Source of the DNA: Escherichia phage vB_EcoM-RPN242
Sequence record: OL656110.1
DNA: 64,000 nucleotides
Strand: one strand, 5' to 3'
Part shown: positions 1,804 to 64,000 of the stretch, piece by piece
How positions within the stretch are numbered: the stretch's first letter is position 1
Layout: every line of letters begins with the position of its first letter
Translations under genes and position numbers: made by a program
The notes under the pieces: generated by a model
What the model was told of the DNA's origin: nothing
What the model saw: the letters and a program-made list of their open reading frames with translations, nothing else
Databases searched by the model: none

Positions 1804-2919
1804 TTATGCATCCAGTTTGTTCAGGCGTTGTTGGGCAGCATTATAGAAGTGCTCTGCCAGTTTACAGACGTTGTCGGGGCGCTGAATGTTGTTCCCGGCG
1901 CGGATATCCTTCTTCAGGACTTCCACCGCATCGGTCGCCACCATCTCTTCGGTGACCTCAACCTTCTCGGCAGCAACAGTAATCGTCCGGTCGATGAAGT
2001 TGTAGTCAATGCACTTACAGCGCTTCATGGCATCACAGAACTTTTCATAATGCTTAGCATTGTCACGGTTCTGTACAATAACCTTAACAATTTGCCCTTC
2101 AATACCCAAGCCTGTGTTCAACCATTCCGGGTCGATCCAATTACCTTCTTCATCAGATGACAACTTGGTGTAATCATATTCCACATAGCGGAACAGCGTC
2201 TGGTGCTCGGCGTTCGGGATAAAGATCTCACCACCACGCATGTCGTCCACATAGAAGCCACGGTTAGTGCCGTCTTTGTAGTCTTCCCAGTTCAGGTGAT
2301 ATGGAGTCCCAATATATTGAATGTTACCTTCCATCGAACGGGTATGGAAATGGCCCGTGTCGACCCTGGTAAACTTGGAAAGCAGAGCAACGTCGATCTG
2401 ACCGTGATCACAAGTAGAAGACTGGTACATTTTGAACCCCGCCAGCTCCAGATGCGCAAAACAGTACTCGGCGTCTGTATCTTGTATCGCTTTAATAGAC
2501 GCATCATAGTTCTCCTTGTTGATCCAAGGCAGCAGCAGAGTCTTGACACCCTCGATCATCACTTCGGTCGGTTCGCTGTAATAGCAGTACACATCCGGGT
2601 CGAGTTCGTTCAGGTAGGATGGCCAGTTGATGCGGTTGGACTCTTCCAGGGTGATGTCATGGTTGCCCACGATGCCATTCCACTTGATACCAGCCGCTTT
2701 CAACGCAGGGGTGAGTTCATCCTTCAGCCAGTCTTTGTCGCGCCCGTACATGAATTTGCGGACATCAAACGTATCACCGAACTGCCAGACCTCTTTGATA
2801 TCAGAGTCGGCAAGTTCAGGAATGAAATAATTGATAAGATAGTTCTTGATGAAGTCGCGAACGTATCGAGAACCATTACGGCTCCCGATATGCAGATCGC
2901 CAATTTTAGCAATCGCCAT
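1804..2919 (-). CDS. 47: SbcD/Mre11-like recombination nuclease (T4 gp47-like)
   Basis: 371-aa ORF with calcineurin-like phosphoesterase motifs GDLHIG, GNHD and GHFH; SD GGGAGA upstream of ATG 2919. Confidence 0.85.
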   Translation of the reverse strand: MAIAKIGDLHIGSRNGSRYVRDFIKNYLINYFIPELADSDIKEVWQFGDTFDVRKFMYGRDKDWLKDELTPALKAAGIKWNGIVGNHDITLEESNRINWPSYLNELDPDVYCYYSEPTEVMIEGVKTLLLPWINKENYDASIKAIQDTDAEYCFAHLELAGFKMYQSSTCDHGQIDVALLSKFTRVDTGHFHTRSMEGNIQYIGTPYHLNWEDYKDGTNRGFYVDDMRGGEIFIPNAEHQTLFRYVEYDYTKLSSDEEGNWIDPEWLNTGLGIEGQIVKVIVQNRDNAKHYEKFCDAMKRCKCIDYNFIDRTITVAAEKVEVTEEMVATDAVEVLKKDIRAGNNIQRPDNVCKLAEHFYNAAQQRLNKLDA

Positions 2920-3697
2920 TGTTCTTTTTCTCCCGTTCTTCTAATCTTTGTTTGAGGGCTTCCCAATCTGGTTCCATCGCACAGATATCATCTTCCAGAT
3001 TGAATTGGGTTTTGCCGAAGTCTTGATCTGAATTGTCTTCGGCCTGCGCTGTTACCGTATTCTTAGCCTGCGCCATGTATTGAAGTATGCCTTTCGCAAT
3101 CTTTTTATTCGATTCTGCGAGACGAGCTGCCTCCACCTTCTCTCGCTCCTTCTGCCTTTGAGCGTCCTTTTTGTTCTCAAAGTTGCCGATACGTTCACGG
3201 AAGTCCATGCCAATTCCTGTAGCATCAACAAAGACCTCTTGTTGGAAGTCGGGATCGTCTGCCAGGCCTGCGAACCCACCCGCCTCTTCAAATGAGCGCA
3301 ATTTAATGTACGTGTGCTCTTCTTCGATATTCAGTTTACGAGCGAATGATCGATCAGCACACATGGTCACCCAAGAGAAGAAGTTGATCTTCCCTTTCTT
3401 TCCAATGTGTTCGACGTCAAATGTGTGGAGGTAGCGCAAGATGTTGACTATTGCTTCAGAGACCATGTCTTCACGGAAGGGATAGTCGCGATAGTTGTAG
3501 CGGGTGCTCATCTTGGTGATGATGCGCTGGACCTGTAGAGCAACATAGTTGGGGATCTTTGGAAGCCTGGTGCCTTCAGCCAGAGCCTTCTTACGAGCAG
3601 GGATCCAATCACGAAGGATACTGATGACACGCTCGTTATCTTCGTCTGTGAAATATTTGACGACATTCTCCCCTCTGTCCACGAAGTTCATTCCCAT
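2906..3697 (-). CDS. 55: late-transcription sigma factor (T4 gp55-like)
   Basis: 263-aa ORF; central region aligns by eye with T4 gp55 conserved blocks; SD GAGGGA 8 nt upstream of the ATG. Confidence 0.75.
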   Translation of the reverse strand: MGMNFVDRGENVVKYFTDEDNERVISILRDWIPARKKALAEGTRLPKIPNYVALQVQRIITKMSTRYNYRDYPFREDMVSEAIVNILRYLHTFDVEHIGKKGKINFFSWVTMCADRSFARKLNIEEEHTYIKLRSFEEAGGFAGLADDPDFQQEVFVDATGIGMDFRERIGNFENKKDAQRQKEREKVEAARLAESNKKIAKGILQYMAQAKNTVTAQAEDNSDQDFGKTQFNLEDDICAMEPDWEALKQRLEEREKKNNGDC

Positions 3698-4236: not shown

Positions 4237-4281
4237 GATATAAATATCCCAAACTGGTTTTATAGAAAGAGGAATGAAACT

Positions 4282-22106: not shown

Positions 22107-22571
22107 TTATTCGCTTTTTGCCTTTGTAGGCCGGATGATGTATTTTGGAACCAGCTTCCATTCAGGAACCTGATCGTGTTTAACCACTTTAATGCGAGAC
22201 ATATCGGCTGCTTCGGTGACCTGCTCAGGATGAATGACCTTCACCATGTTCCACTGCTCCAGCAGCTTGATGATTCGGTTCATCCTCAGGACATCTTCGC
22301 GGTTAAATCCGTTGTAATGCCCGTCCAGCATAAATAGATGCTTAAAGTGGACGATATAATACTTACCACACTTATGAAGAATATGGCAAGTCTGATACAG
22401 AGTATTCGGCTCTTGGCGCGTGTTTACCCCAATTCGACTCAGTGTTTCCTTGATCCCCAGAAATATACCTGGCCGATCTTGGTTCAATTGAACTTCAACC
22501 ATACAATCAACGATGCTGGCCTCATCGTTGACTGCTGAAATATTCAATATGTCTAGCGTATTACGCGCCAT
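22107..22571 (-). CDS. regA: translational repressor RegA
   Basis: KETLSRIGV...LYQTCHILHKCGKYYIVHFKHLFMLDG...EWKLVPKYIIRP matches T4 RegA blocks; SD AAGGGGA upstream of ATG 22571. Has an N-terminal extension of about 30 aa relative to T4. Confidence 0.75.
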   Translation of the reverse strand: MARNTLDILNISAVNDEASIVDCMVEVQLNQDRPGIFLGIKETLSRIGVNTRQEPNTLYQTCHILHKCGKYYIVHFKHLFMLDGHYNGFNREDVLRMNRIIKLLEQWNMVKVIHPEQVTEAADMSRIKVVKHDQVPEWKLVPKYIIRPTKAKSE

Positions 22572-22600
22572 GACTCATTCCCCTTTTACAATAGTTTGAA

Positions 22601-23023
22601 CTATTTAGCCTTGCGCGGTTTCGCTTTGGCGTTCAGCTCAGTGCGTCTCATCTTCTCGCGTATCTCGGCCAGGACTTCCTTCGGCAAGAAACGGACGTAC
22701 TCCGATGCCTTCTCCATGCTGATGTAGAAGTACTCTGAGAGTAACTTCACGTCAGGATCAATCGGACCTTTCTTAGACCATTTATCGTAGCGTTTCCGAG
22801 CCGGAATGGTGTAAAAGGCATATGACCATTGCATCCATGGAGTGATAGCATGTAGCTTATTCATCTGTTGCGCAGCCACTAGAGTGTCTTTGCTCTGAGC
22901 TAAACCACGCCGCGTCATAAACGGGTCGAATCCTTTCAACACTTCTGGGTCATCAGACCGCAAAAGGTTTTCTTTGCTGCTGTTCAGAGCAGCCAGGTAA
23001 TCGAACAATCCAAGGGCGGCCAT
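22601..23023 (-). CDS. 62: clamp-loader small subunit (T4 gp62-like)
   Basis: IPARKRYDKWSKK resembles T4 gp62 VPRGKRYGKWAK; start overlaps the gp44 stop, as in T4. Confidence 0.65.
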   Translation of the reverse strand: MAALGLFDYLAALNSSKENLLRSDDPEVLKGFDPFMTRRGLAQSKDTLVAAQQMNKLHAITPWMQWSYAFYTIPARKRYDKWSKKGPIDPDVKLLSEYFYISMEKASEYVRFLPKEVLAEIREKMRRTELNAKAKPRKAK

Positions 23024-24098: not shown

Positions 24099-24767
24099 TT
24101 ACTCAATCTGTGCGCCGACGAAGTAATTGATCGTCGCGTCGGATGATTGGAAGTTCACCATCTGTAGATCAGCACAGGCACGCAGAGTGTAGTTGCCTTC
24201 GATCATTTTCAGGTTGGCAACATCCAGCGGCATTACGAAGTCCGGCAGCGCGGTTTCGCCCAGCTCAACAGTGTAGTTGTTGGAGTTGTCCAAGGTAGTG
24301 GTGGTTGCAACCAGGCGAGTTTTGCCACCCTGAGCAACCAGGCGCACAGTCTTGTGTCCGAGGGTAGAGCAGGCGCGGGTCAGTTCTTTCATCTTCTCTG
24401 GAGTGATGATCGCTTCAAAGTCAACAGACGGCAGTTCAATGGTGTCAGCCGGGACAACCGTGAGTTCTTTAGCAGAACGCCAGAATTGCAGCTGAGAGCT
24501 TTCGCCTTTCAACAGGATGTAGTCCTGATGGAATTCGGCTTTGGCACCTTTGAAGGAAGGTAGGCGCTGGATGGCCAGAAGTTTGGTCAGGTCCAGAATC
24601 GGGAACTCAAACGGGAAGTCTTCTTCGATCTGCGCCACGGCGATCACAGTAGAAGAATCATTAATACTGCGCAGCATCTTACCCGGTGTCAGAACGATAG
24701 ATGGGTTGATGGTCTCAAAGTTGGCCAGCAACTGAAGTGTACGTTCGGAGAGAGTGATCTCTTGCAT
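24099..24767 (-). CDS. 45: sliding clamp (T4 gp45-like)
   Basis: 222 aa; N-terminus LLANFETINPSIVL parallels T4 gp45 LLKNFATINSGIML; gene order 45-44-62-regA matches T4. Confidence 0.8.
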   Translation of the reverse strand: MQEITLSERTLQLLANFETINPSIVLTPGKMLRSINDSSTVIAVAQIEEDFPFEFPILDLTKLLAIQRLPSFKGAKAEFHQDYILLKGESSQLQFWRSAKELTVVPADTIELPSVDFEAIITPEKMKELTRACSTLGHKTVRLVAQGGKTRLVATTTTLDNSNNYTVELGETALPDFVMPLDVANLKMIEGNYTLRACADLQMVNFQSSDATINYFVGAQIE

Positions 24768-28248: not shown

Positions 28249-28290
28249 AAAATATCCCAGCTTGTCAATGTCATAGAATTATACCGCATT

Positions 28291-29470: not shown

Positions 29471-30199
29471 TTACTTCAGCGCGTTCTTCAGATTATCGGA
29501 ACCAATGCTGTTGATGACACCTCCGGCGCAGATATCTTTCGCCCACTCTGAGATCACGTTGGCAAAAGAGAAGTTAAGACACTTACCAACCATGTCTTGG
29601 ATATGGGCTAACTCTGCTGCAATACCGTTCGTGATGTCCTGAGCAATAGAGGCTACTGATGCGACAGCAGTGTCGATGGCCTGAGTAACTTCAGCAGCCA
29701 GTGCCTGAATAGCATCAAGACCAGCACCGACGCCCTGAGCTACCAACTCAGCCAGCTCATTCATCTTGTTTGTGATAGTTGTGAGAACACTTTGCATGGT
29801 GTTGATCCACTGTTTGCCGAGGTTCTGAATAACCCCAAATGCATTATTGATCAGATCACAGTTGTTCGGTTCTCGACCTATAGACTTCAGGGCGGACTTA
29901 TACGACACAGATGTACCGATGCGGGAATATGCCTCGTTCACTGACTGGTCGCCATAGTTGTTCAAAGTAGTGATGCTGTTGTTGGCTGAGTTGAACATTG
30001 CTGTAGATTCGTTGAGTTTGGCTGTAGTCAACCCACCTGCCGTCAGCGCTTCCTGAATCTGCGCATTTCCGGTGTTAGCCAGTGACGCTGTAGTCGCCTT
30101 ACCACTGGTGATTAACCCCTGTGAGGCGCTGCTGAGGGACGGGAGAGGATTGGTAAAGGCGTTGCCCTGTGATAGGGCGTCATAGATCTGTGCGTTCAT
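29471..30199 (-). CDS. hypothetical Ala/Thr/Gly-rich structural protein
   Basis: ORF with a CTAAATAC motif 28 nt upstream of ATG 30199; an alternative start at 30241 would make an ATGA overlap with the upstream gene. Confidence 0.5.
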   Translation of the reverse strand: MNAQIYDALSQGNAFTNPLPSLSSASQGLITSGKATTASLANTGNAQIQEALTAGGLTTAKLNESTAMFNSANNSITTLNNYGDQSVNEAYSRIGTSVSYKSALKSIGREPNNCDLINNAFGVIQNLGKQWINTMQSVLTTITNKMNELAELVAQGVGAGLDAIQALAAEVTQAIDTAVASVASIAQDITNGIAAELAHIQDMVGKCLNFSFANVISEWAKDICAGGVINSIGSDNLKNALK

Positions 30200-30227
30200 A
30201 AGAAAATACCCCCATGGATGATGGGGG

Positions 30228-30234
30228 TATTTAG
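30228..30234 (-). promoter_or_regulatory. late-promoter-like motif CTAAATACCCCC
   Basis: 28 nt upstream of ATG 30199; embedded in a palindrome. Confidence 0.4.
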
Positions 30235-45696: not shown

Positions 45697-46392
45697 TCAA
45701 TCTCCAGGATGATGTACACCGTCTTTGTCAACACGGAACCACTCCGGCAGTTCCGTCCACGGTGTTTTCAAATCATTAGACATTTCGATAATTATCTCTT
45801 TGATCCCGTTAGGATCCCCGCCTCCCTCGTTGTCCACCCAATAGTCATACCCGTAGATGAAGCCGCTCAGCTGGAACATGAAGGAGCAGTCGACGTGTGG
45901 TGAATCAGAAGCATCCCCTTCCCAGTTATCGGACATCTGGTGGCTGATCAGTTGGATCTTGATCTTCTGGTCTTGCTGTAGTGTATCGTTGTCCTTGATA
46001 CCACAGTCTAGAGAGGGAGTGAATACCGAATAAACCTGCTCTAGCACCTGTAACATCTCAACCAATTTCTTGGTTCGGATATTGTACTCAAAATCGATAA
46101 TCAGGGGGATTCGCTGCTTCGCCCCTGCTGTTGGTGTCGATTGTCGATTGTGGTACGTCTTCGTCACCTGTTTGTTGATCTCAAACTGGCCAAAAGAGAA
46201 TGTCGCAAATGGAAGCATGTTGGACGGCACGTTCCTGTTGAGGTCATTGCGTCTCCCGATGGCCATGTGTAATGGGACTTCCATAAGACCACGCTCTGTG
46301 TTCACCTTCAGATCAGACATAATGGTGGCAAACAGATTGATGTATTTCATCAATGAATCATGGTAGAAGTAATTTTCAAATGGTCTGGCCAT
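45697..46392 (-). CDS. 15: tail sheath stabiliser / completion protein (T4 gp15-like)
   Basis: N-terminus MARPFENYFYHDSLMKYINLFATIMSDL parallels T4 gp15 MFGYFYNSSFRRYATLMGDLFSNI; SD TGGAGAA. Confidence 0.65.
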   Translation of the reverse strand: MARPFENYFYHDSLMKYINLFATIMSDLKVNTERGLMEVPLHMAIGRRNDLNRNVPSNMLPFATFSFGQFEINKQVTKTYHNRQSTPTAGAKQRIPLIIDFEYNIRTKKLVEMLQVLEQVYSVFTPSLDCGIKDNDTLQQDQKIKIQLISHQMSDNWEGDASDSPHVDCSFMFQLSGFIYGYDYWVDNEGGGDPNGIKEIIIEMSNDLKTPWTELPEWFRVDKDGVHHPGD

Positions 46393-46394
46393 GA

Positions 46395-47045
46395 TTATTC
46401 TCCAAAGTCGATCTTCATATTGTCTGTTGCAAGCCCCTTCTCAAGATCATCTGCTAAAGCATTGTCGGTCTGCAGAGAAGAATCCTTGTACACGTCCGGT
46501 TCGTTCTCTTCGTCCAAGATGGACAGACGTTTGTCGATATCGTCGATCTCCGGAACGCCCGTATCGAAGTTTTCGTTGCCGTACTGGAACAACGTGCACG
46601 GCAGAGAGAACGTATACCATTTGCCAAATTGCATGAAGTCTTCATCGTTGTTCGGGTTGTTGACCTTGAAGATCTTGTTCGCCAGTGGTAGATAGATCAG
46701 GTCACCTTCCTGAGGTTGTTGTTCAAACCCAACACCGTTGCCTATCACCTCGGCAAATCGGCGGCGCGAGATAGAGAACGTCACTTCGTCTTGCAATTGG
46801 ATACCCCCAAACTTCTCCCACATCTGGGTGTTGAAGCCCTGATAATCCTGCATGTACGCTTCGATGTCGAACGCCTGGTCGAATCTGTGGTTAGCGTCGT
46901 TGGTGATAGGAAATTTTTCAACGATGGAACGGGGTATATACTTGATGTCTATCCCGCGCAACTCAATCATTTCCTGTACCAAATCTTCAATCAGCTTCTG
47001 TGTGCCTTGGTGATTGGTGGCGTTGAAATATTTAGAAGTGGCCAT
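46395..47045 (-). CDS. neck protein (gp14-like by synteny)
   Basis: 216-aa ORF between the gp15-like and gp13-like genes; SD GAGGG; CTAAATACC motif upstream. Confidence 0.5.
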   Translation of the reverse strand: MATSKYFNATNHQGTQKLIEDLVQEMIELRGIDIKYIPRSIVEKFPITNDANHRFDQAFDIEAYMQDYQGFNTQMWEKFGGIQLQDEVTFSISRRRFAEVIGNGVGFEQQPQEGDLIYLPLANKIFKVNNPNNDEDFMQFGKWYTFSLPCTLFQYGNENFDTGVPEIDDIDKRLSILDEENEPDVYKDSSLQTDNALADDLEKGLATDNMKIDFGE

Positions 47046-47068
47046 ATCAATACCCTCAATTTTGAAGG

Positions 47069-47075
47069 TATTTAG
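47069..47075 (-). promoter_or_regulatory. late-promoter-like motif CTAAATACC upstream of neck gene
   Basis: About 24 nt upstream of ATG 47045. Confidence 0.45.
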
Positions 47076-53995: not shown

Positions 53996-56221
53996 TCACG
54001 CTTCTGGCGAGGGGATAGTAAACCAATCGGACGCTGTTCCTGTTGTAGTGCCTTTATGCCTCCAGCCACTAACAGTTCTTTTTACCGTAGGGCTATCCTG
54101 CCAACCTGTTGCCGGGAGAAAGAAATTCCTCACTGGGGCGGGGTTTAACGCTCCAGTAGCTGGCGTGGCGGTTCCAGTCTGAGATGATACGAAGGTGGTT
54201 ACTGTTGAGTAATCTATTACGTTATCATCATGAAACGCATTCGTGTATAGATTTGCGGGTGCTGAGTTAACGAAGAATGCCGTAGTAACCCCGCTAACCT
54301 TGTTTCTATATACGTTGTTCCATCTACAGTTACCACCAAGGCGTATACCCTCAGAATCAGAAGCCCCCGCAATGGTGTTACTATCTATGTCACAATATTG
54401 GAAACTTTGAGCTACTAAAAACCGGCAACTATTACGCGTAACCCTGCCGTAAGTAGACGTACCATTGGCATAGTAAACTGTTATATTGCCAGATGTTAAA
54501 CAGTCTTTAATCGAGAAATTGGTCATAGGGCTAGTAAGGTATACACTGCCAGTACCTTTCACTGTAATGTTTATATTTTTTCTAACTGTCAGGGTGTATG
54601 CGGGCGCGCTATACATACTGACTATATACCCGTTCGCCCCTGTATTTACAGGGACATTTGCATCCACTGTCACATAATCACAGTCCTTAATTAATATCGC
54701 AGCGGTTGTTTGAGCGCCAGTCTTTACGAATCTAATAGACGGGTTTGTGATGGTAAAGTTCTGGCATTGCTCCATAAAGATAACGCCTGATACTTGATCG
54801 TCTGCCGCCAGCGAGTCTACAACAATACGCTGAGCACCAAATGCCCCCATAACCCCATACTTTCCGCCTTTAATATAATCAGCATGGGTGTTGCAGTCGA
54901 AGCATTTTGCACCAAAATATATACCTCCGTTGTTGGCCGTAGGTTTTAGGGTGTTATGGGATGTACGGATGTTACGGCAGCCAGCATAAGATATTATTTG
55001 CGCATCCCCACCGGTCCCTCCAATGTGGGTCGTACCTGTAACAGTACAATCTGTAGATCCGTAACCAAAAAATATATTACCATTTCCGACACGCCCGGTA
55101 TGGGTAGTGTTGTGGTACACCACACCGTACGCGTTATCATGCCTTGAACCGCCATTTCCATTATAATCAAAAACAGTACCATGGAACTCTATAAGCGAAG
55201 CCCCCACAGATTGGTACATGTAGCTAGACCCTGACGCAGAATTTTTTAAGATTCCCCCGATGAACTTAGTAGCGTTGCCTTTTATAAGATAAATAACCGA
55301 ATTGGTGGTAGTTAGGTCCCACGGTAAAGCCGTTGCTAAATTTACGGTAGCACCTGATATGGACGAGATTAAAAAAGATTCGCCTTGGTATCCGGTTACA
55401 TCCGGATTCTGTGCGTTGGCAATATACCAAGCGTCACTTGTGTCCTCAGTGCGTATTACCAACGCCCGAGTATACCCAGTTCCTGCCACCTCAGATGTTA
55501 ATGTGATGGACGTTGCTCCGGAAGCCGCAGGGGAAAGCAAGCTGAATTGGCTCTCGCTGACGAAATTAAGAGCATTAGCGGTCAATGATGTCAACCCAGC
55601 ACCGTGACCGAAAGTAAAAATCGTACCTTTTGGTATGTTGACTTGTGAATGGGAAATTGTCATGCCCGGAGGAACAAAAACATTCCCCGAGTTAATGGCT
55701 AACTGTAAACTAGATGCCTCATCAGACCCATCACCGACAACCCCAAAAGCACGCACGTCCCGTAAATTAGGATCTGTCTGCGGCTTCCAGTCAGCGTTAC
55801 CAACTGGGTTAGTTCCTGCGACAATAGTTACAGGTAAGGAACCTAAGTAGGTGTAACCTATGCCATTATAAAATAGTAATTCATTTCTAGTATTCACAAC
55901 TAAACCAGTAGCAAACGAGTCGGATAGGTTCACGAACTCTCTACGTGTAGCAGCCAGTTCCCCCAAATCAACTGTGCCTGCGGAATGAACCAGGACTGCA
56001 TGTTTATTGAGGCTTACGGCAGTGGTTCCTACTGGAAGTACAGGTAATGAGTAAGCACGTTGGGTAGACTTGTCATAGATTACTTTGTAGCCACCCAAGT
56101 CCACTCCCACAGCAAAGTAGACTACTTCATTTTGCTTAACACCAAACTTACGAGCAATGGCTTGCTTATTGGTAAGAATACCAGTAGAGCCTTTACCGCC
56201 TTGTGAGAACATTTCGTTCAT
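53996..56221 (-). CDS. tailspike protein 1 (beta-helix type)
   Basis: 741 aa; N-terminal module NKQAIARKFGVKQNEVVYF...VLVHSAGTVDLGELA is shared with the other tailspikes; C-terminus is repetitive and Gly/Asn/Thr-rich, typical of a parallel beta-helix. Confidence 0.75.
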   Translation of the reverse strand: MNEMFSQGGKGSTGILTNKQAIARKFGVKQNEVVYFAVGVDLGGYKVIYDKSTQRAYSLPVLPVGTTAVSLNKHAVLVHSAGTVDLGELAATRREFVNLSDSFATGLVVNTRNELLFYNGIGYTYLGSLPVTIVAGTNPVGNADWKPQTDPNLRDVRAFGVVGDGSDEASSLQLAINSGNVFVPPGMTISHSQVNIPKGTIFTFGHGAGLTSLTANALNFVSESQFSLLSPAASGATSITLTSEVAGTGYTRALVIRTEDTSDAWYIANAQNPDVTGYQGESFLISSISGATVNLATALPWDLTTTNSVIYLIKGNATKFIGGILKNSASGSSYMYQSVGASLIEFHGTVFDYNGNGGSRHDNAYGVVYHNTTHTGRVGNGNIFFGYGSTDCTVTGTTHIGGTGGDAQIISYAGCRNIRTSHNTLKPTANNGGIYFGAKCFDCNTHADYIKGGKYGVMGAFGAQRIVVDSLAADDQVSGVIFMEQCQNFTITNPSIRFVKTGAQTTAAILIKDCDYVTVDANVPVNTGANGYIVSMYSAPAYTLTVRKNINITVKGTGSVYLTSPMTNFSIKDCLTSGNITVYYANGTSTYGRVTRNSCRFLVAQSFQYCDIDSNTIAGASDSEGIRLGGNCRWNNVYRNKVSGVTTAFFVNSAPANLYTNAFHDDNVIDYSTVTTFVSSQTGTATPATGALNPAPVRNFFLPATGWQDSPTVKRTVSGWRHKGTTTGTASDWFTIPSPEA

Positions 56222-56497
56222 AATGACCTCTTTGTTTTTCTAAGTAAGCCTCCCAACGTGGGGAGGCATGTAAGTAAAGTTATTTACCGATTCTCAATTC
56301 AGCTAACCAACCTAGAATTTGTTTATTGATTCTAGACGGGTAAGCAGCCTCTAACCATGCACATCGGTCTGGTATTAAACCTCACCTTGAACCAGCAGGA
56401 GTAACAAATTCTTTCCATCCTTTCTGTAGAACTCAGGTATACGCTTCTTTAATACCATTATTACCAACAATACTTGCATACACAACAGACACTAAAC

Positions 56498-56530
56498 TCT
56501 ATATAAGAAAAGGTCCCGAATGGGACCTTT
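56498..56530 (-). terminator. intrinsic terminator after tailspike 2
   Basis: AGGTCCC-gaat-GGGACCT hairpin followed on the minus strand by TTTCTTATATAG; the same flanking motif CTATATAAGAAAAG as at 53948. Confidence 0.55.
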
Positions 56531-56539
56531 ATAATAAAA

Positions 56540-58963
56540 TTAAGGGCTAACCCGATACCACCCGTCGTAGCTAATATACAAACGTTTACCGGACACAACT
56601 GCATCAATGCGAAGCGTTTTTTCACCTTCAGTAAAGAACGCTCCTCCAGTGTTCCCGATGTTCATTCGAAAGCTGGCTGGAATATTTCCAGAGGTAAAAC
56701 CGATGTCCCCGTTGTTCACCCCTGTTACTGCTATGTATGCGTAATCCCGCGCGACAGGAAATCCTGTCACAGATATGAACTGACTGGTGCCGGAACTCCA
56801 TTCAATTGTCACATCAAACACACCGAATATATGAGCAAAATCTCCGACATAATTTATGTTATGTACGGTATACTCGCCGTATGATATCACCGCATTGGTG
56901 CCTGATTGAACTGTAATTTCAGGCGAACCGGGGTCATTCGCTAAGAAAGTACGGTCTGGTCTGATTTTGGCGGATGAATTCGCCACCGTTCTGGTAACGT
57001 TGTTGAGCCAACCGGCCTCCACCGGATCCCCATTTCGCGTAGACCTTACAATGTTGTTACGCAATATTGCGTTAAAAAACGTAATATCGGAGATGTAAAT
57101 ATTATGGTGCTGCCCGGCTACGGCCCCGCCAAACAACATCCCATTAGAGTTGTACTCATAAGATACGTTGTTCTCAATGATGCTGTTGCGCGCCACTCCA
57201 TTTAATTCTAGCCATGATATGTTAGACGGGCCTGTGTAATCAGAACCAAGTCTAATACTGGTGTTATTGGTGAATGAGCTATGGTCGAAATTATCCAATC
57301 TCCAGTTAATACCCAGAGTGCCTTCTTGACCATTCCCAGTTACCGTTACCCCTAGCAGGTTCTGTAATATATAGCCATAACACACTCTTGTCCTGTCCGG
57401 ATAATAGTCGTTCCTGTTAGTGTGATCACAGGCATTAGCCTCTATAACAGAGTATTTAAGATCCCGATAGCAATGCCCATAATCACGGCAACTATTACTA
57501 TAGTTAGTAGATATTACGCATGAAGTGCCGTTGTTTATAAATATCCCACCGAGACATGCGGTAACGCGGTTGTTTCCTACTCGCGACGCAAATACAACAG
57601 GGAGAATTAGCCCATACTTGCAATCGTAAATATAGACGTCTTCTATCGTGGCGTCGGATACCACGCCTGCATTTACGATACCAAATTCTACCGCGTGGTT
57701 TTCCGTTGTAGTTTTTGTCCCATGCAGAGTAACCCCTGTGATGACACCGGACCATCTTGAACTACTAGAATCCCCTAAACAAATAACCGCATTCATATCT
57801 GTAGGCAGGGTTCCGGTATATCCTCCAGATAGTGCAGGCGCCGTCACCAGAACTGTAACGGTAGTGGATGTCGTTTTCGTTATAGTAACTGATTCGCGAC
57901 TTCTCCCTATTACTGATACATTCGATGGTAGAGCAAGAGTACTGCTTATTTTATAGTTACCATCCGGGAAATAAACCACGCCTTTTGTGGTGCTGGCATA
58001 AGCTATAGCTGCTTTTATAGCTACCGTATCATCAGTAGCTCCGTCACCAACAGCACCAAAATCTTTAACGTTATAGTAGTCTTTAAAATGGCTATCAATG
58101 GTTCGCTTAATTGCAGAAGAAACACCAGATAAGCCAGAATTTACTAATGTTCCCCCATCAGTAACCATAGCCGTTTTATATACCTGCAACTCATTCTCCA
58201 CTGGAGTTACATCATTGGGTGCAGGGAGCAGGTCAACAACAATCCCACCAGGATTGTATGTTAGTTGGTCACCATTAACGGAAGAAATATATACGTTAGT
58301 AGGCAATGTAGGCAACCCATATGCCTTCTGCTCACTAACAGAATAAATAATCTTCTTACCATTGAGGGACTGAGTAGTATCGGTGCTAAGAATTACTTCA
58401 CTATCTTTAACGTTAGTAGCACGAGCGATTTCTTGAATACTTCGGTCAAACAACGGACTGATATTCGGTTGTTTAACAGACATTTCAGCGACTACCCAAA
58501 CGCCTGCTGTCAGCGCAGTTTGTAAAGACACTTTCCCTGTCGTGCTGTCATAGGAATATTCAATTTCGGGTGTTTTGTACTCACCACCGATATAAAGAGA
58601 TTGGACTCCATAAGATGTGTAATCAGGAGTGAACTCGGTTTCACCTCCTATAGCCTGAAACTTATAGATTCGAATCCCAGTTTTATAATCTTCTGGAGAC
58701 AGAATCTTATCAAACAGACAGAACACAACGTCACCTTTGGATAATGCGCGTCCGAGATTTAACGTATTTCCATCGATTTCAAAGTTGTCTAACGGAACTT
58801 GCATACCACCGTTGATTGTGACTATACCAGTGACAGGGTAGAAAGGGAGGGAGATAAACTTCTCTCCGCCCGTTGCTGTGTAAGTGTATGGAATCTGGTG
58901 CGGAGCTGTTACGACCGCTCCAAAGATGCTCTCGACGTTTCTGGTCATTTGAAAATACCCCAT
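56540..58963 (-). CDS. tailspike protein 2 with extended N-terminal anchor and pectate-lyase-like beta-helix
   Basis: 807 aa; an N-terminal region of about 200 aa precedes the shared ARATNVKDSEV module; YNVKDFGAVGDGATDDT is the pectate-lyase-superfamily signature. Confidence 0.8.
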   Translation of the reverse strand: MGYFQMTRNVESIFGAVVTAPHQIPYTYTATGGEKFISLPFYPVTGIVTINGGMQVPLDNFEIDGNTLNLGRALSKGDVVFCLFDKILSPEDYKTGIRIYKFQAIGGETEFTPDYTSYGVQSLYIGGEYKTPEIEYSYDSTTGKVSLQTALTAGVWVVAEMSVKQPNISPLFDRSIQEIARATNVKDSEVILSTDTTQSLNGKKIIYSVSEQKAYGLPTLPTNVYISSVNGDQLTYNPGGIVVDLLPAPNDVTPVENELQVYKTAMVTDGGTLVNSGLSGVSSAIKRTIDSHFKDYYNVKDFGAVGDGATDDTVAIKAAIAYASTTKGVVYFPDGNYKISSTLALPSNVSVIGRSRESVTITKTTSTTVTVLVTAPALSGGYTGTLPTDMNAVICLGDSSSSRWSGVITGVTLHGTKTTTENHAVEFGIVNAGVVSDATIEDVYIYDCKYGLILPVVFASRVGNNRVTACLGGIFINNGTSCVISTNYSNSCRDYGHCYRDLKYSVIEANACDHTNRNDYYPDRTRVCYGYILQNLLGVTVTGNGQEGTLGINWRLDNFDHSSFTNNTSIRLGSDYTGPSNISWLELNGVARNSIIENNVSYEYNSNGMLFGGAVAGQHHNIYISDITFFNAILRNNIVRSTRNGDPVEAGWLNNVTRTVANSSAKIRPDRTFLANDPGSPEITVQSGTNAVISYGEYTVHNINYVGDFAHIFGVFDVTIEWSSGTSQFISVTGFPVARDYAYIAVTGVNNGDIGFTSGNIPASFRMNIGNTGGAFFTEGEKTLRIDAVVSGKRLYISYDGWYRVSP

Positions 58964-58984
58964 AAAGGATTTGCCAATATGGGG

Positions 58985-58991
58985 TATTTAG
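58985..58991 (-). promoter_or_regulatory. late-promoter-like motif CTAAATACCCC upstream of tailspike 2
   Basis: Part of a conserved cassette repeated at 61647. Confidence 0.45.
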
Positions 58992-59014
58992 TCTGAACTA
59001 ATAAATTTATAAAC

Positions 59015-59044
59015 AAATGTATAGAGAAACCCCGCCGAAGCGGG
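59015..59044 (-). terminator. intrinsic terminator after tailspike 3
   Basis: CCCCGC-cgaa-GCGGGG hairpin, the same core as at 34187 and 61693; T-rich on both sides. Confidence 0.6.
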
Positions 59045-59066
59045 GCTAGTTTTTATTTGTGGTGTG

Positions 59067-61616
59067 TCAATTGAGTTTTGATATCTCTACAGTTATACCG
59101 AATACGTTATTCGGTCTACTTGTGGTTGTAGCTATAGTTAGCTCAAAGAAATGCGCGTTTATATCTGGTGACTGTGTGTATCCCGCAGAATTAGTTAATG
59201 TTACATTGAGTGATATGTCCGAATCTGTTACGCCGTTTATGCGAATTTCATTCACAGGTCCTGATAGCGACGCGGCGGAAGTTGCACCTATCTTATGATT
59301 TACCAGGTACGTCTTCTCAATATAAGCAACGGATCCCCCATTATTATATGAAGAGCACGACTTAACTTTTACCAGTAGGTTTTGCGATTCTAATGTTCCA
59401 TAGTTATCAAAAATCTTTAAAACTTTGTTAGCAGATGCACCAGAAATGCTTCCACAGTTCACTTCCCATAATGTAGTTCTATTCGCATTCGGTGCGTTCT
59501 CATACATGTAGAAACTACCATCTGGAATTACCCTGTTGTTTATTAATGTTTTCAGATTTCCGCAGTTACCTATTAGTCTCACGTGGGCATTGATGTTTGT
59601 TAATGTTACTGTTTTTATTTTTGATTCTGTGTTTGCGCACCTAATAGAACCACCCATGCAGTTAATATTTTCGTAATAGACATTACCAGCTTGCCACGGT
59701 AACGCGAAAATATCGTCCGCCCGGTTTTTATAATTGAGCGCAACATTAGCAGCAATCCAGTCTCGGTGCATAGAAGAATCACCAGTAAATGTGACGATAC
59801 CTATTTGAGGGTCTTCTGCTGGGGTTGTGCCCAAACTGGCAACTATATTGATATCTGTCAGCTCACCACCAAGACATCTTATATTTGGCATATCATATTC
59901 TTCGGTGGCAAATACGTTACGCCATTTAGCATCAAAACCAGCGTGCGAGTCCATCGTGGCGAAGTTATTATAACCGAAGCACTTTTTAACCTCGAACTTG
60001 TTGAACCATGTTGTTGGGGAGGCAGCATGTCTACAGAATGATGCTGTGATGCTATCAACAACTGTATCGTAAGTGCCCGCCGCAGGGCTGATAGGATACT
60101 GACACCTATTAGCAACTACATTGCCAATCCTTGGCATATAGCAAGCTATTAATAAGTACGAGGAACCACCACTGGTTTCCACGTCACCAGAAAAGACTGG
60201 CATATAAAAACCACGGAACCATGAAGATGAAACCCCAAATGATGCGGTGCCTATATTAACAAAAGATGAGTTATCACGGTTGTTAAAGTGCTCCATCTTG
60301 AAGTTATTGAAAATCAACCTTACCGGTTTGTACCTGTTAACCTTAACGTTGTTTGCTACTAGATGATCGAATAGCGCTGGCCTATCAACTTTCATATTAG
60401 AACCAGATTCACGCTCTGCAATAAACAACTCCCTTGAGTTAAAATTCCACTGAGTCTCGTACGTCTTGTTGTCCTCTATATAAATCAAATCACCCTCTAC
60501 AGCCCCAGCCACCCGCGCAACTGTGGAGCCGCTTACCATATCAGCTAGAAGTGAAGACTGAATCTCGGTTGATGACAGGTGCATTTCCACCCCATCAGAG
60601 GCCCCGAACAGCTTTATGCCAGACCAATCAACAACTAAGTTTTTATCAATCGACAATAGTTCTATATTACTGGTTACAGTAACCTCACCGACTGACCTGA
60701 AGTATCCACGGCACCCGGATGTGTAAGCTACAGTCAGGAATTCAGATATAGTCTGGCCTGATACAGACCCTCCAGCGGTTATGCCGAAATCATCTCCGCA
60801 AATCGCGCTTATAGGGGTAAATGATGTTAATGCCGGCTGGGAAGCAGACCTGACCCACATTGTACCGCCGGTTGAGCATACCGAATCTACAGGTAACTCT
60901 GCCTCCGTGGACGCAATCATCTCGTAAAAAGAGGAGAAATGTTTGTATATTCCAGCAACTTTGTAACCACCAGTTATAGGATTAGTCCCAGCGACAACTA
61001 TACCAGCAGGACCGGAGAACGCCTTACCAGTGCGTTCTTGTAGTAGCACATCGTTGGCGTTCACTAGTGTACCGCCCGACTCAAAGCTACCATCTACTAG
61101 ATTATAGCCTGCTGTTGCATAGCTACGGCGCAACGCCTCACGGGTCTGTGTACTTGTGAACTGATTGGAGCACCTAATATAACCACTCCCTGGAAGAGTA
61201 GGGTCTGTGCCAGCAGGAACTACTTTAGGTAATGCCCCATCCCAACGGTACTTCCCATCTGTAAAGACAACTAATTCATTCTTGGTATTAACTGTTACAC
61301 CGGTATCAAATGACCCAGACAATGTGACGTACTCTTCACGAGATACAGCCAATTCCCCGAGATCTACAGAACCTGCTGAATGTACCAGGATTGCCTGTTC
61401 GTTCAGACTTATCGCAGTCGTTCCTGAAACAATACCTGAAGGAAGAGAATAAGCCCGTTGGGTAGACTCATCATAAATTACTTTAAATCCACTGAGATCA
61501 ATACCAGCAGTGAAATAAATGACTTCGTCTTCTTTGACACCGAAATTTCGAGCGATAGATTGTTTGTTAACTTCTATGGAAGTGGAGCCGCGTGGTTGAT
61601 TGAATTGAGAAATCAT
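59067..61616 (-). CDS. tailspike protein 3
   Basis: 849 aa; N-terminus VNKQSIARNFGVKEDEVIYF and a 60-aa block nearly identical to tailspike 4. Confidence 0.75.
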   Translation of the reverse strand: MISQFNQPRGSTSIEVNKQSIARNFGVKEDEVIYFTAGIDLSGFKVIYDESTQRAYSLPSGIVSGTTAISLNEQAILVHSAGSVDLGELAVSREEYVTLSGSFDTGVTVNTKNELVVFTDGKYRWDGALPKVVPAGTDPTLPGSGYIRCSNQFTSTQTREALRRSYATAGYNLVDGSFESGGTLVNANDVLLQERTGKAFSGPAGIVVAGTNPITGGYKVAGIYKHFSSFYEMIASTEAELPVDSVCSTGGTMWVRSASQPALTSFTPISAICGDDFGITAGGSVSGQTISEFLTVAYTSGCRGYFRSVGEVTVTSNIELLSIDKNLVVDWSGIKLFGASDGVEMHLSSTEIQSSLLADMVSGSTVARVAGAVEGDLIYIEDNKTYETQWNFNSRELFIAERESGSNMKVDRPALFDHLVANNVKVNRYKPVRLIFNNFKMEHFNNRDNSSFVNIGTASFGVSSSWFRGFYMPVFSGDVETSGGSSYLLIACYMPRIGNVVANRCQYPISPAAGTYDTVVDSITASFCRHAASPTTWFNKFEVKKCFGYNNFATMDSHAGFDAKWRNVFATEEYDMPNIRCLGGELTDINIVASLGTTPAEDPQIGIVTFTGDSSMHRDWIAANVALNYKNRADDIFALPWQAGNVYYENINCMGGSIRCANTESKIKTVTLTNINAHVRLIGNCGNLKTLINNRVIPDGSFYMYENAPNANRTTLWEVNCGSISGASANKVLKIFDNYGTLESQNLLVKVKSCSSYNNGGSVAYIEKTYLVNHKIGATSAASLSGPVNEIRINGVTDSDISLNVTLTNSAGYTQSPDINAHFFELTIATTTSRPNNVFGITVEISKLN
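61239..61385 (-). repeat. near-identical coding repeat in tailspike 3 N-terminal module
   Basis: About 145 bp with only a few mismatches against 63519-63665; encodes the shared VLVHSAGSVDLGELAVSREEYVTLSGSFDTGVTVNTKNELVVFTDGKYRWDG block. Confidence 0.8.
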
Positions 61617-61646
61617 GATAATACCCCAAGAATGACCAATATGGGG

Positions 61647-61653
61647 TATTTAG
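61647..61653 (-). promoter_or_regulatory. late-promoter-like motif CTAAATACCCC upstream of tailspike 3
   Basis: Part of a conserved cassette repeated at 58985. Confidence 0.45.
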
Positions 61654-61675
61654 TCTGAACTAATAAATTTATGAA

Positions 61676-61710
61676 CAAAGTTATAATAAGAACCCCGCCG
61701 AAGCGGGGTT
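61676..61710 (-). terminator. intrinsic terminator after tailspike 4
   Basis: AACCCCGC-cgaa-GCGGGGTT hairpin with T-rich flanks. Confidence 0.6.
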
Positions 61711-61715
61711 TATTG

Positions 61716-64000
61716 TTATGATGCATTTGCTGATTTGTTTAAATACCATCCGTAGTTCGTTTTTATTAACTCTACAATCTCCCCGTTTGTCTTGTATTTT
61801 GTCTTCCCGGTTTCTGTATTATACATAATTCTGTCGGTGACAGAGACGCCGGACGCTTGTTTTGAAAGCGTCACAACAGTGTTGCCGGATAACGGAAGTA
61901 TTGATATCCTTTGTCCGATATATCCACCAGTGATTGACGTTATCACTGATCCATTACTTCCAGCGTCGAGATAAAATACGTCGCAAGAGTTGGCATCTAA
62001 TGTAGTTGTTTCAGTTGTTAGCGTTTTCGTTGGCGACGAAATACCAAGCACAAATGATGAACCGTTCCATGTATATTCTTTGCCGTCAGCAAGACCAATC
62101 ACTCGCTCGTTGATTCTTAAATCGGGTGCAAAAGTCTTTCTAATGTCAACAATTTTAATAGTGCCACAAAACGGGACAGGGATAATCACGTTACCTGCAA
62201 GCCTGTTAATAGTGTAAATTGAATTGCTGATCGTCCACTGTCTACCGTTCCACATACTCATAAATGAACCAGAAGATAGAAGCACGGTTGAACTGTAACC
62301 TGCTTCCAAAGCATTTGTGTCTGTTATCATGCCGCGATCAATAGGATTGCTAAAATCGTCAGAGCAGTCGAATACTCTAATGTTTGCACGTCCTTCATAA
62401 TTACCTGATTGACCAACAGGTGCGATAACAAAGAGATAATCCTTATCAAAACCATAATCAGGGCCAACGCGTAAGAACGACGCCATACAGTTAGTGGTAG
62501 GGAACTGTCCTTTTACAACCCACTTTCCACTAGAATCTTGCATCAATAGCTTTTGAATGGCTATTTTGTACGGCTTAGTGGTCGTATCTGCTGCGCGCTC
62601 AATGGCAAACGGTGTTCCGTCATAAAAATTTCCGAAACCAATTTCACCGCCAGATGTACCGAGAGTATCGGTATCCGTGTCTTTCCTGACATCTTCACCG
62701 TAGGTGTAGTTACCGCTATCATCAACTGTGATATACCCCTCAACTATTCCGGTAGATAGTTGAGTTAAATAATAATAAGGAATTGCAGGCTTGCCATTTA
62801 TGTACCCGACTTGTGTAGGTGCAATTGATGAGAAGTAAGCACCAGATGGTTTAACCAATGGCGTAATATCAACAGGGGTGCTCCATGTATTGCCACCATC
62901 CTTTGATATGACATATTCAATAGTTGATGTTGTGTCAGGGTTAGTTCCTTGTTGTGCATGCCCCCACCCAGTAATCCCCTTCATTGATGTAAAGAAACAA
63001 TACAAATATCCATCAAGATTATTTAGGAATAGTACCGTTTCAGAAGTGGCATATCCTGGCCCTTTGTTAACAACAGTTCCAGTGGTCCAGTTCACACCGT
63101 TATCATCAGATATTAGGTAATCAATGTGCATAGGTGTGCCGTCCTGTCCTGGGTCAATATTAGCACCATCCTTCACTGTGTAGATACATACCACCCGCCC
63201 ACTTGGAAGTGACACCGCTTTTGGTGCAAAGTTAAATACATTCTCCACATAAGTTTGCAACTGTAAGCGCAAATTATTGTTAAAGCTTCTTGAGTATTTA
63301 TTCCCAAAAGCGAAATTAAATCTATTTTTTGCAATTGATTGCCTTTTGTAAAGCTCAAAATCTTTATCCTTGACTGCTCCGTTAACTAAATCAACTCCGT
63401 CATCATCAGCCAGGTCACTTCTTAAACTTACATCACCAACACTTAACCATTTTCCTGCACCAGTACCACCAGCACTCCCTGGGGTTGAGCCAGCAGAAAC
63501 CTCTTTAGGCAATTCCCCATCCCAGCGATACTTCCCATCTGTAAAGACAACTAATTCATTCTTGGTATTAACTGTTACACCGGTATCAAATGACCCGGAC
63601 AATGTGACGTACTCTTCACGAGATACAGCCAATTCCCCGAGATCTACAGAACCCGCTGAATGCACAAGTACAGCGGAAGGACTAAGACTGACAGCAGTAG
63701 TACCAGGGGCAATATCAGCAGGCAAGGGATAAGCCCTTTGCGTCTCCTTGTCATAAATAACTTTATACCCACTTAACGCAGCACCAACACTAAAATAAAC
63801 GACCTCTGTATCTTTAACATTGGTTACACGAGCAACTTCCCGCAAAGTATAATCAATTTGATTGTAGATGTTTGGTGTTCCATTGATAATTACAACAACT
63901 TCATCCTCTGGTTCCAGTTCTTGCGCAAGAGTGATTTTACTGGTTGATGGATCGAATGTGAATCCCAGATTTTTATACTGGCGACTTCCGTTTATATCAA
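61716..64000 (-). CDS. tailspike protein 4 with BNR/Asp-box repeats, N-terminus beyond window edge
   Basis: Frame remains open upstream of the track start (a TTG) to position 64000; the upstream translation matches the tailspike 2 linker. Two Asp-boxes, SDDNGVNWT and SKDGGNTWS. Confidence 0.75.
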   Translation of the reverse strand, partial: DINGSRQYKNLGFTFDPSTSKITLAQELEPEDEVVVIINGTPNIYNQIDYTLREVARVTNVKDTEVVYFSVGAALSGYKVIYDKETQRAYPLPADIAPGTTAVSLSPSAVLVHSAGSVDLGELAVSREEYVTLSGSFDTGVTVNTKNELVVFTDGKYRWDGELPKEVSAGSTPGSAGGTGAGKWLSVGDVSLRSDLADDDGVDLVNGAVKDKDFELYKRQSIAKNRFNFAFGNKYSRSFNNNLRLQLQTYVENVFNFAPKAVSLPSGRVVCIYTVKDGANIDPGQDGTPMHIDYLISDDNGVNWTTGTVVNKGPGYATSETVLFLNNLDGYLYCFFTSMKGITGWGHAQQGTNPDTTSTIEYVISKDGGNTWSTPVDITPLVKPSGAYFSSIAPTQVGYINGKPAIPYYYLTQLSTGIVEGYITVDDSGNYTYGEDVRKDTDTDTLGTSGGEIGFGNFYDGTPFAIERAADTTTKPYKIAIQKLLMQDSSGKWVVKGQFPTTNCMASFLRVGPDYGFDKDYLFVIAPVGQSGNYEGRANIRVFDCSDDFSNPIDRGMITDTNALEAGYSSTVLLSSGSFMSMWNGRQWTISNSIYTINRLAGNVIIPVPFCGTIKIVDIRKTFAPDLRINERVIGLADGKEYTWNGSSFVLGISSPTKTLTTETTTLDANSCDVFYLDAGSNGSVITSITGGYIGQRISILPLSGNTVVTLSKQASGVSVTDRIMYNTETGKTKYKTNGEIVELIKTNYGWYLNKSANAS
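63519..63665 (-). repeat. near-identical coding repeat in tailspike 4 N-terminal module
   Basis: Pairs with 61239-61385. Confidence 0.8.

Follow-up and report, generated by a model that had tools for sequence, protein, structure and literature searches.

The 64,000-nucleotide (nt) stretch of Escherichia phage vB_EcoM-RPN242 analysed here (sequence record OL656110.1; the whole stretch is called the window below) carries at its right end the tailspike cluster of a ViI-like myovirus of the Ackermannviridae, whose closest records are the Escherichia phages PC3 and PH4 (95.7% identity) and which is matched by more than 220 Kuttervirus and related genomes. Four tailspike genes, assigned from the list of open reading frames, PHROGs and the structure PDB 6w4q, make up the cluster:

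53996-56221, minus strand: tailspike 1
56540-58948, minus strand: tailspike 2
59067-61616, minus strand: tailspike 3 (stop codon 59067-59069)
61716-63845, minus strand: tailspike 4, C-terminal part

The intergenic regions upstream of tailspikes 2 and 3 hold two similar cassettes, each of which, we think it likely, joins a terminator and a late promoter to a hairpin that locks the ribosome-binding site in the manner of bacteriophage T4 gene e. The first element of each cassette is a hairpin whose G+C stem is closed by a UUCG loop and followed by a U-tract, a textbook match to Rho-independent terminators:

59023-59045, minus strand: Rho-independent terminator 3' of tailspike 3 (CCCCGC-UUCG-GCGGGG, hairpin 59030-59045, then UUUCUCU)
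61683-61710, minus strand: Rho-independent terminator 3' of tailspike 4 (AACCCCGC-UUCG-GCGGGGUU, hairpin 61691-61710, then CUUAUUAU)

An original prediction, made from the sequence alone, had reported CCCCGC/GCGGGG terminator hairpins in both intergenic regions, and they are indeed present there on the minus strand. It had also put the identity of the two cassettes at about 85%, which is too high for the regions as it delimited them: these are out of register and 78% identical. Aligned from the terminator to the true ATG, the cassettes are identical in 80% of alignment columns and at about 90% of ungapped positions.

Each terminator is followed by the motif CTAAATACCCC, found exactly at 58981-58991 and 61643-61653, which the original prediction had picked out upstream of both genes without recognising in it a late promoter. 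The promoter boxes are as follows:

58985-58991, minus strand: late promoter box CTAAATA of tailspike 2 (gp55-type, -10-like; annotated in GenBank OP991882)
61647-61653, minus strand: late promoter box CTAAATA of tailspike 3 (the 7-mer annotated in GenBank OP991882)

The window contains four exact copies of CTAAATACCCC, all on the minus strand, against 0.52 expected, and none of 100 shuffles reaches four; the 11 copies of CTAAATA likewise lie on the minus (coding) strand without exception, nine of them 23-42 nt upstream of a start codon. In phage SPTD1, 20 copies labelled 'Kuttervirus late gene promoter' (GenBank OP991882) stand before sheath, scaffold, neck, baseplate and tailspike genes. The published CTAAATAcCcc, quoted as an Ackermannviridae regulatory motif and credited to Adriaenssens et al. 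2012, Arch Virol 157:2035 (PMC7283392), is exactly the sequence found at 58981-58991 and 61643-61653; it has been used in reporter work (PMC9965104), and the sources consulted take it for a plain promoter consensus.

The resemblance of this box to that of T4 late promoters is substantial, xCTAAATA agreeing with the T4 late box TATAAATA at six of eight positions, and at orthologous sites CTAAATA is swapped for TTAAATA or for the T4 consensus TATAAATA itself. An example is the phrog_2114 gene (window 30197-30234; SPTD1 ~97520), whose box is CTAAATA, TTAAATA or TATAAATA according to genus, with the hairpin described below retained; because the box varies between genera while the hairpin stays, the functional core seems to be TAAATA. 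Upstream of the box there is no conservation beyond its C and no -35 element, and in Limestonevirus, Agtrevirus, Taipeivirus and a Serratia phage the homology of the tailspike-2 region starts exactly at the C of CTAAATA. In T4 late promoters an 8-bp box, set about one turn of the helix before the start site, occurs without a -35 element (PMC2988020). Downstream of the box, 21 sites are pyrimidine-rich at positions +1 to +4 and A-rich at +5 to +8, and this pattern, taken with the T4 geometry, fits initiation 5-7 nt after the box; the start sites so predicted are A 58980 or 58978 for tailspike 2 and A 61642 or 61640 for tailspike 3.

Two further genes in the window bear on the recognition of the box:

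2906-3697, minus strand: gp55-like late sigma factor (phrog_234, E 3e-52)
24099-24767, minus strand: gp45-like sliding clamp, a T4-type late-transcription activator (phrog_223, E 1e-64)

By its likeness to the T4 box, its strand, its position and the presence of these gp55-like and gp45-like genes, the CTAAATA box fits a putative T4-type (gp55-dependent) late promoter, and the gp55-like protein is presumed to be the trans-acting factor that reads it. Both candidates were identified via PHROGs, and a Pfam search of the two gave no match. A gp33 has been reported in the relatives AG3 (PMC3121705) and CBA120 (PMC3184105).

From within the box to just before the gene runs a second hairpin. It had been predicted at both genes and is found at both, with stems longer than those first described, namely 12 and 9 bp for tailspikes 2 and 3, respectively:

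58978-58989, minus strand: tailspike-2 5' arm AAATACCCCATA (covers 5 nt of the box, the 4 nt that follow and the region of the predicted start, A 58980 or 58978)
58965-58977, minus strand: tailspike-2 loop of 13 nt, variable in length and sequence among orthologues
58953-58964, minus strand: tailspike-2 3' arm TATGGGGTATTT (Shine-Dalgarno-like GGGG 58958-58961; spurious in-frame ATG 58961-58963)
58946-58948, minus strand: true tailspike-2 start codon (MTRNVES...)
61642-61650, minus strand: tailspike-3 5' arm AATACCCCA (predicted start A 61642 or 61640)
61620-61628, minus strand: tailspike-3 3' arm TGGGGTATT (Shine-Dalgarno-like GGGG 61624-61627; ends 3 nt before ATG 61614-61616)

The 5' arm begins 2-4 nt inside the promoter box and continues through the next 4-9 nt, and the 3' arm consists of a Shine-Dalgarno (SD)-like G run followed by TATT(T), complementary to the box, and ends 3-4 nt before the ATG at both tailspikes. 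Stems as long arise in 0 of 1000 shuffles at tailspike 2 and in 1 of 1000 at tailspike 3, and the local segments fold with z-scores of -4.0 and -1.9, respectively. RNA folding, one of the checks put forward with the original prediction, finds the whole intergenic RNAs more stable than their shuffles (z -4.5 at tailspike 2 and -4.2 at tailspike 3). Among orthologues the arms are invariant, while the loop varies in sequence and in length (4-16 nt).

The region has no counterpart at the gathering score in an Rfam 15 scan of 56000-62000, in which sub-threshold chance matches fell on the terminator stems. The suggestion that these hairpins are processing sites found nothing in its support: the stems measure 9-14 bp, without an Rfam match. 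Stems of 9-14 bp are too short for RNase III, and an RNase III processing site was ruled out for that shortness.

The second hairpin could instead serve as an attenuator or as a reserve intrinsic terminator, which would stop read-through polymerases before the ATG and let polymerases from the embedded promoter pass. Taken alone, the G+C core at tailspike 2 (CCCCAUA/UAUGGGG) is indeed followed by UAUUUUC, the site at window 30234 and that of the SPTD1 RuvC-like gene are similar, and GenBank MG428992 (phage Mutine) labels the hairpin of promoter and ribosome-binding site a 'terminator'. The U-rich tail is, however, merely the complement of the promoter's AAATA, and the U-tract is poor at tailspike 3 (UAUUAUC after the core; UAUUAUCAUG) and at SPTD1 tailspike 4 (UAUUACAA); the loops at the tailspike sites are 12-13 nt long, and a consensus terminator scan reports none of these hairpins. 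What is invariant across sites is not the U-tract, but the coverage of the SD sequence and a gap of 2-5 nt to the ATG. As the explanation of the hairpin, a back-up terminator is unlikely; it may act at some sites, and a terminator function could coexist with a translational lock.

At tailspike 2 the ATG at 58963 merely opens the longest open reading frame, and the ATG at 58948 aligns with the ATG of tailspike 3; the structure of the CBA120 homologue (PDB 6w4q) starts MTRNVEE. As a true start the ATG at 58963 was excluded, since it has no SD sequence (pairing with the 16S 3' end at -1.5 kcal/mol), its frame differs in one orthologue (L023), and the protein in PDB 6w4q begins MTRNV. In contrast to the earlier statement that no obvious SD precedes the ATG, the 3' arm contains UGGGGU, which binds the 3' end of the 16S RNA with -6.1 kcal/mol and lies 5-7 nt before both true ATGs, a strength comparable to the SD pairing of other genes here (-5.7 to -7.0 kcal/mol), and the GGGG of the 3' arm is the sole SD-like element at both tailspike genes. 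The placing of the ATG within or against the 3' arm holds for the ATG at 58963, which is in the arm and is not the true start, and does not hold for the true ATGs, of which the arm stops 3-4 nt short. Because the true ATG lies downstream and the SD sequence within the 3' arm, the hairpin buries the latter and not the start codon.

The tailspike-2 start also differs between the records compared (GenBank ON184125, OP991882 and MG428992; PDB 6w4q), PC3 and SPTD1 having the in-stem ATG (MGYFQMTRNV...) and Mutine and the CBA120 structure MTRNV. The same in-stem ATG ambiguity is seen at the SPTD1 RuvC-like gene.

The predicted consequence of this arrangement was calculated as the energy needed to open positions -16 to +3 of the ribosome site, with curated start codons. 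In read-through RNA the opening would cost 18.1 kcal/mol at tailspike 2 and 11.6 at tailspike 3, and in RNA begun 5-7 nt after the box 5.6 and 7.3 kcal/mol, respectively. The difference between the two RNAs at other hairpin-bearing genes is 10-15 kcal/mol (5.6 at the neck gene of the window), compared with -1.6 to 7.3, mostly below 4.5, at lock-free sites. The late-initiated RNAs are no more stable than their shuffles (z +1.0 at tailspike 2 and +0.2 at tailspike 3).

These properties suggest a cassette in three steps. An intrinsic terminator would end the upstream gene; a T4-type late promoter, its CTAAATA read by the gp55-like sigma without a -35 element, would follow; and an RNA hairpin would pair the box and the few following bases (AAATACCCCATA at tailspike 2) with the SD region (TATGGGGTATTT). 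RNA arriving from upstream, through terminator leakage or from early or middle transcription, would hold both arms and have its SD sequence buried, while late polymerase, beginning about 5-7 nt after the box, would make an mRNA that lacks the 5' arm and whose ribosome site is open, so that the protein would be made only from the gene's own late promoter. The late RNA cannot contain the whole 5' arm, because this arm includes the recognition element of the promoter itself, and, with the start predicted 5-7 nt after the box, it retains at most AUA of the arm. The analysis shows the layout of the sequence, its recurrence, its statistics and its predicted thermodynamics, while where transcription starts, whether read-through RNA exists and how translation is affected are inferences.

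Hairpin control of translation initiation, as originally predicted, is thus supported, but as part of the late mRNA leader the hairpin is not, as its 5' arm starts inside the promoter box. Both conditions named beforehand as refuting that prediction probably hold: transcription probably starts inside or after the 5' arm, and the true start codon probably lies further downstream with a ribosome-binding site; with them the feature becomes a switch of the T4 gene e type rather than losing its function. Stable, conserved hairpins, a start site not yet mapped and the ability of a 5'-terminal stem-loop to protect mRNA would all suit a structure that stays within the late leader and there modulates translation, stabilises the 5' end or serves as a processing site. 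Such a role is nevertheless quite unlikely, since the 5' arm has 3-5 nt of the box in 15 of 17 distinct hairpins, the T4 geometry leaves at most AUA of it (PMC2988020), the late-initiated RNAs are unstructured, and T4 gene e, with the same arms, works experimentally in the opposite way (PMC3014915). There is a very small chance that the Ackermannviridae late sigma starts nearer to the box than T4 gp55, or inside it, so that late mRNAs carry the whole lock and some ten genes per genome, every tailspike gene included, need a trans-acting opener; if this were true, the opener would be a phage RNA chaperone or helicase or a modified ribosome, and a late translational switch would be layered on late transcription.

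The system in which such a switch is established is T4, where long early transcripts of genes e, soc, 49 and I-TevI sequester the SD sequence and/or the AUG (McPheeters et al. 1986; reviewed in PMC3014915) and late transcripts, from promoters encoded in the 5' strand of the hairpin, lack that strand and are translated (PMC3014915). As a positive control, the upstream region of T4 gene e (tTATAAATAccttcTATAAATActtaggaggtattATG) folds AAUACCUUCUA/UAGGAGGUAUU directly before the AUG with a z-score of -3.95. The likeness to T4 e lies in the late box within the 5' strand of the hairpin and the SD sequence in the 3' strand just before the AUG, and it extends to the letters of the arms, which are nearly identical between T4 e (AATACCTTCTA/TAGGAGGTATT-ATG), the neck gene of the window (AATACCTTCA/TGAGGGTATT-gatATG) and tailspike 2 (AAATACCCCATA/TATGGGGTATTT-tcaaATG); those of T4 e almost equal the arms at the neck gene and at SPTD1 57070. 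The choice of genes is similar as well, as SPTD1 has the lock at the gene of a RuvC-like junction resolvase, which corresponds in function to T4 gene 49, and at that of a cell-wall-related protein (cf. T4 e). The features of a T4 gene e-type lock that can be read from a sequence are found here: the SD sequence in the 3' strand, the promoter in the 5' strand and a predicted fold in the long RNA only. In contrast to T4, a member of the Straboviridae with the box TATAAATA and two tandem promoters, the Ackermannviridae site has CTAAATA and a single promoter; the tailspike genes here already have terminators of their own and lie among late genes, and their lock is a prediction from sequence.

The design is not confined to the tailspike genes. 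Two further locks lie in the window:

47049-47075, minus strand: lock of the gp14-like neck gene (CTAAATA, then AATACCTTCA-aaat-TGAGGGTATT, then gat-ATG, 47043-47045; z -3.4)
30204-30234, minus strand: lock before the 242-amino-acid phrog_2114 gene (CTAAATA, then AAATACCCCCAT-catcc-ATGGGGGTATTT, then tctt-ATG, 30197-30199; z -3.9)

The SPTD1 orthologue of the neck gene is annotated neck protein gp14, and about ten genes of SPTD1 bear a lock, namely tailspikes 2, 3 and 4, the neck gene, the genes of the RuvC-like junction resolvase and of a putative peptidoglycan-binding protein, and several small ones. The four sites in the window and about ten in SPTD1 have a stem of 9-14 bp that starts 2-4 nt inside the box; the gap between stem and ATG is 2-5 nt at most of them and reaches 8 nt at SPTD1 137159. 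Against shuffles each stem has p ≤ 0.001, except that at SPTD1 137119 (0.008). Across the SPTD1 genome, a perfect ribosome-site stem of at least 10 bp is found at 17 genes, and at 9 of these its 5' arm includes TAAATA (Fisher p 8.5e-5); the median opening energy of the ribosome site is 11.5 kcal/mol for promoter-proximal genes versus 6.3 (p 4e-4).

As the arms of tailspike-2 orthologues are invariant, evidence of covariation was drawn from paralogous sites. Each of positions +1 to +8 after the box shows 2-5 standard pair types across the 17 distinct hairpins, and site-specific extensions of the arms are complementary (ATA/TAT, TAGATG/CATTTA, CAT/ATG, ATAAC/GTTAT, TTCGCA/TGCGGA, CCTCGCT/AGTGAGG). 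A promoter paired with its own SD region forms a mean stem of 8.2 bp, compared with 5.6 bp for the SD regions of other genes, and none of 20000 permutations reaches the former value. It could be supposed that the hairpin has no function beyond its parts, a C-rich promoter tail and a G-rich SD sequence being complementary by accident and the cassettes alike through duplication or gene conversion; the tailspike cassettes are clearly copies of each other, and any C-rich sequence pairs with an SD sequence. This is scarcely credible given a complementarity that reaches into AAATA/TATTT and the site-specific extensions, the cis-trans permutations (0/20000) and the presence of the design at unrelated genes and in T4.

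A further possibility is that the inverted repeat acts as DNA, as a palindromic operator at which a regulator of the late promoter binds or as a structure in melted or single-stranded DNA that aids or impedes promoter opening. The repeat is centred on the promoter, and T4-type late transcription is coupled to replication. Internal non-Watson-Crick pairs on the sense strand comprise nine G.U and three A.C, and because G.U (G.T in the DNA) outnumbers A.C, RNA of that strand is favoured over a DNA palindrome. Furthermore, the half-site spacing of 4-16 nt and the varying arm extensions are unlike the site of one dimeric protein, and the 3' arm always stands at the SD position relative to the ATG, which would be meaningless for DNA. 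A role of the repeat as DNA is accordingly highly improbable, and a protein operator was ruled out by the variable spacing and the fixed relation to the ATG.

The C-rich end of the published motif can be read differently here. Hairpin sites have the cCcc tail, which most late promoters without a hairpin of at least 8 bp lack, an exception being the site upstream of uvsW (window 27037), which keeps cccc with a weak stem; the tail thus appears, from this distribution, to be the anti-SD arm of the hairpin and not a promoter determinant. The terminator, the promoter motif and the mechanism of the T4 switch are already known. No description of the lock in the Ackermannviridae was found in the literature searched, which did not cover Adriaenssens et al. 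2012, and the genome papers of CBA120 (PMC3184105), LIMEstone and AG3 (PMC3121705) discuss late promoters and no hairpin.

Several points weigh against a ribosome-binding-site lock of the T4 gene e type. The literature searched on Ackermannviridae and Kuttervirus transcription yielded neither a transcriptome nor a mapped transcription start for any phage. The invariance of the arms in orthologues is not independent evidence of pairing, as they are also constrained as promoter and SD sequence, and the tailspike-3 hairpin is the weaker one, with 9 bp, a z-score of -1.9 and an opening-cost difference of just 4.3 kcal/mol. The sheath, scaffold and prohead core genes have strong late promoters without such a hairpin. 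Finally, each of the two tailspike promoters has a good terminator some 40 nt before it and is preceded by genes that are late as well, and the biological need for a lock is the weakest link at both tailspike genes. The logic of silencing read-through is clearer at the SPTD1 sites within replication and recombination clusters. The SPTD1 lock genes starting at 45958, 57070, 137159, 139123, 141945 and 152801 lie mostly in clusters of replication, recombination or small unknown genes, in which read-through from early and middle promoters is expected, and this matches the T4 logic. At the tailspike genes, insulation is plausible: synthesis from the own promoter only would set the proportions in which the four proteins of the branched complex are made, and would also turn promoter, lock and N-terminal unit into a portable module.

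The remainder of each cassette is an A+T-rich spacer:

58992-59022, minus strand: A+T-rich spacer common to both cassettes (contains TATAAATT at 59004-59011, one mismatch from the T4 late box)

Its counterpart at tailspike 3 contains CATAAATT (61666-61673). These spacer boxes, one or two mismatches from the T4 late box, sit about 12 nt upstream of CTAAATA, and RNA initiated at them would carry the whole lock. The spacer with TATAAATT is kept only in some Kuttervirus relatives and not in more distant orthologues; on that comparison it probably stands outside the core element, and its presence in both cassettes probably reflects duplication or recombination between the intergenic regions.

Other regulatory arrangements occur nearby and in SPTD1. 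The region upstream of tailspike 1 (56222-56540, minus strand) is unlike those of tailspikes 2 and 3, having neither a CTAAATA box nor a ribosome-binding-site lock; in this 320-nt gap, which follows the tailspike-2 terminator (56509-56530), are a TAAATA hexamer (56281-56286) and the strong hairpin GCCTCCC-cacgt-TGGGAGGC (~56248-56267), after which comes a conventional SD sequence, AAGAGG. A gene for a RegA-like translational repressor (22107-22608, minus strand; PF01818, E 2e-34) has a CTAAATA box at 22602-22608 and no hairpin. On the plus strand, in surroundings that are otherwise minus-strand, the exact T4 consensus TATAAATA at 4239-4246 lies about 38 nt upstream of an ATG with the SD sequence AGAGGA and might serve a plus-strand gene as its late promoter. 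In SPTD1, the genes starting at 28256, 39167 and 101001 have their ribosome sites in hairpins of 12-17 bp without a late box in the 5' arm, which may represent another class of translational control or terminators of the upstream genes.

A lock of the kind proposed here would account for the unusual C-rich end of the late-promoter consensus published for the Ackermannviridae, which would be the anti-SD arm of a translational device, and would place the T4 gene e switch in use outside the Straboviridae, at about ten genes per genome, among them every tailspike gene with a late promoter of its own. For annotation it matters that in many GenBank records the start given for tailspike 2, and for the RuvC-like gene, is an ATG within the stem, and that at least one record names the lock a terminator. 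For engineering, reporter or chimeric-tailspike phages built on CBA120 or SPTD1 should preserve promoter, lock and N-terminal unit together or, alternatively, have the 5' arm deliberately removed to allow expression from read-through. Since homology between genera runs from the CTAAATA box into the N-terminal anchor domain, it suggests that this unit moves as one module when tailspikes are exchanged.

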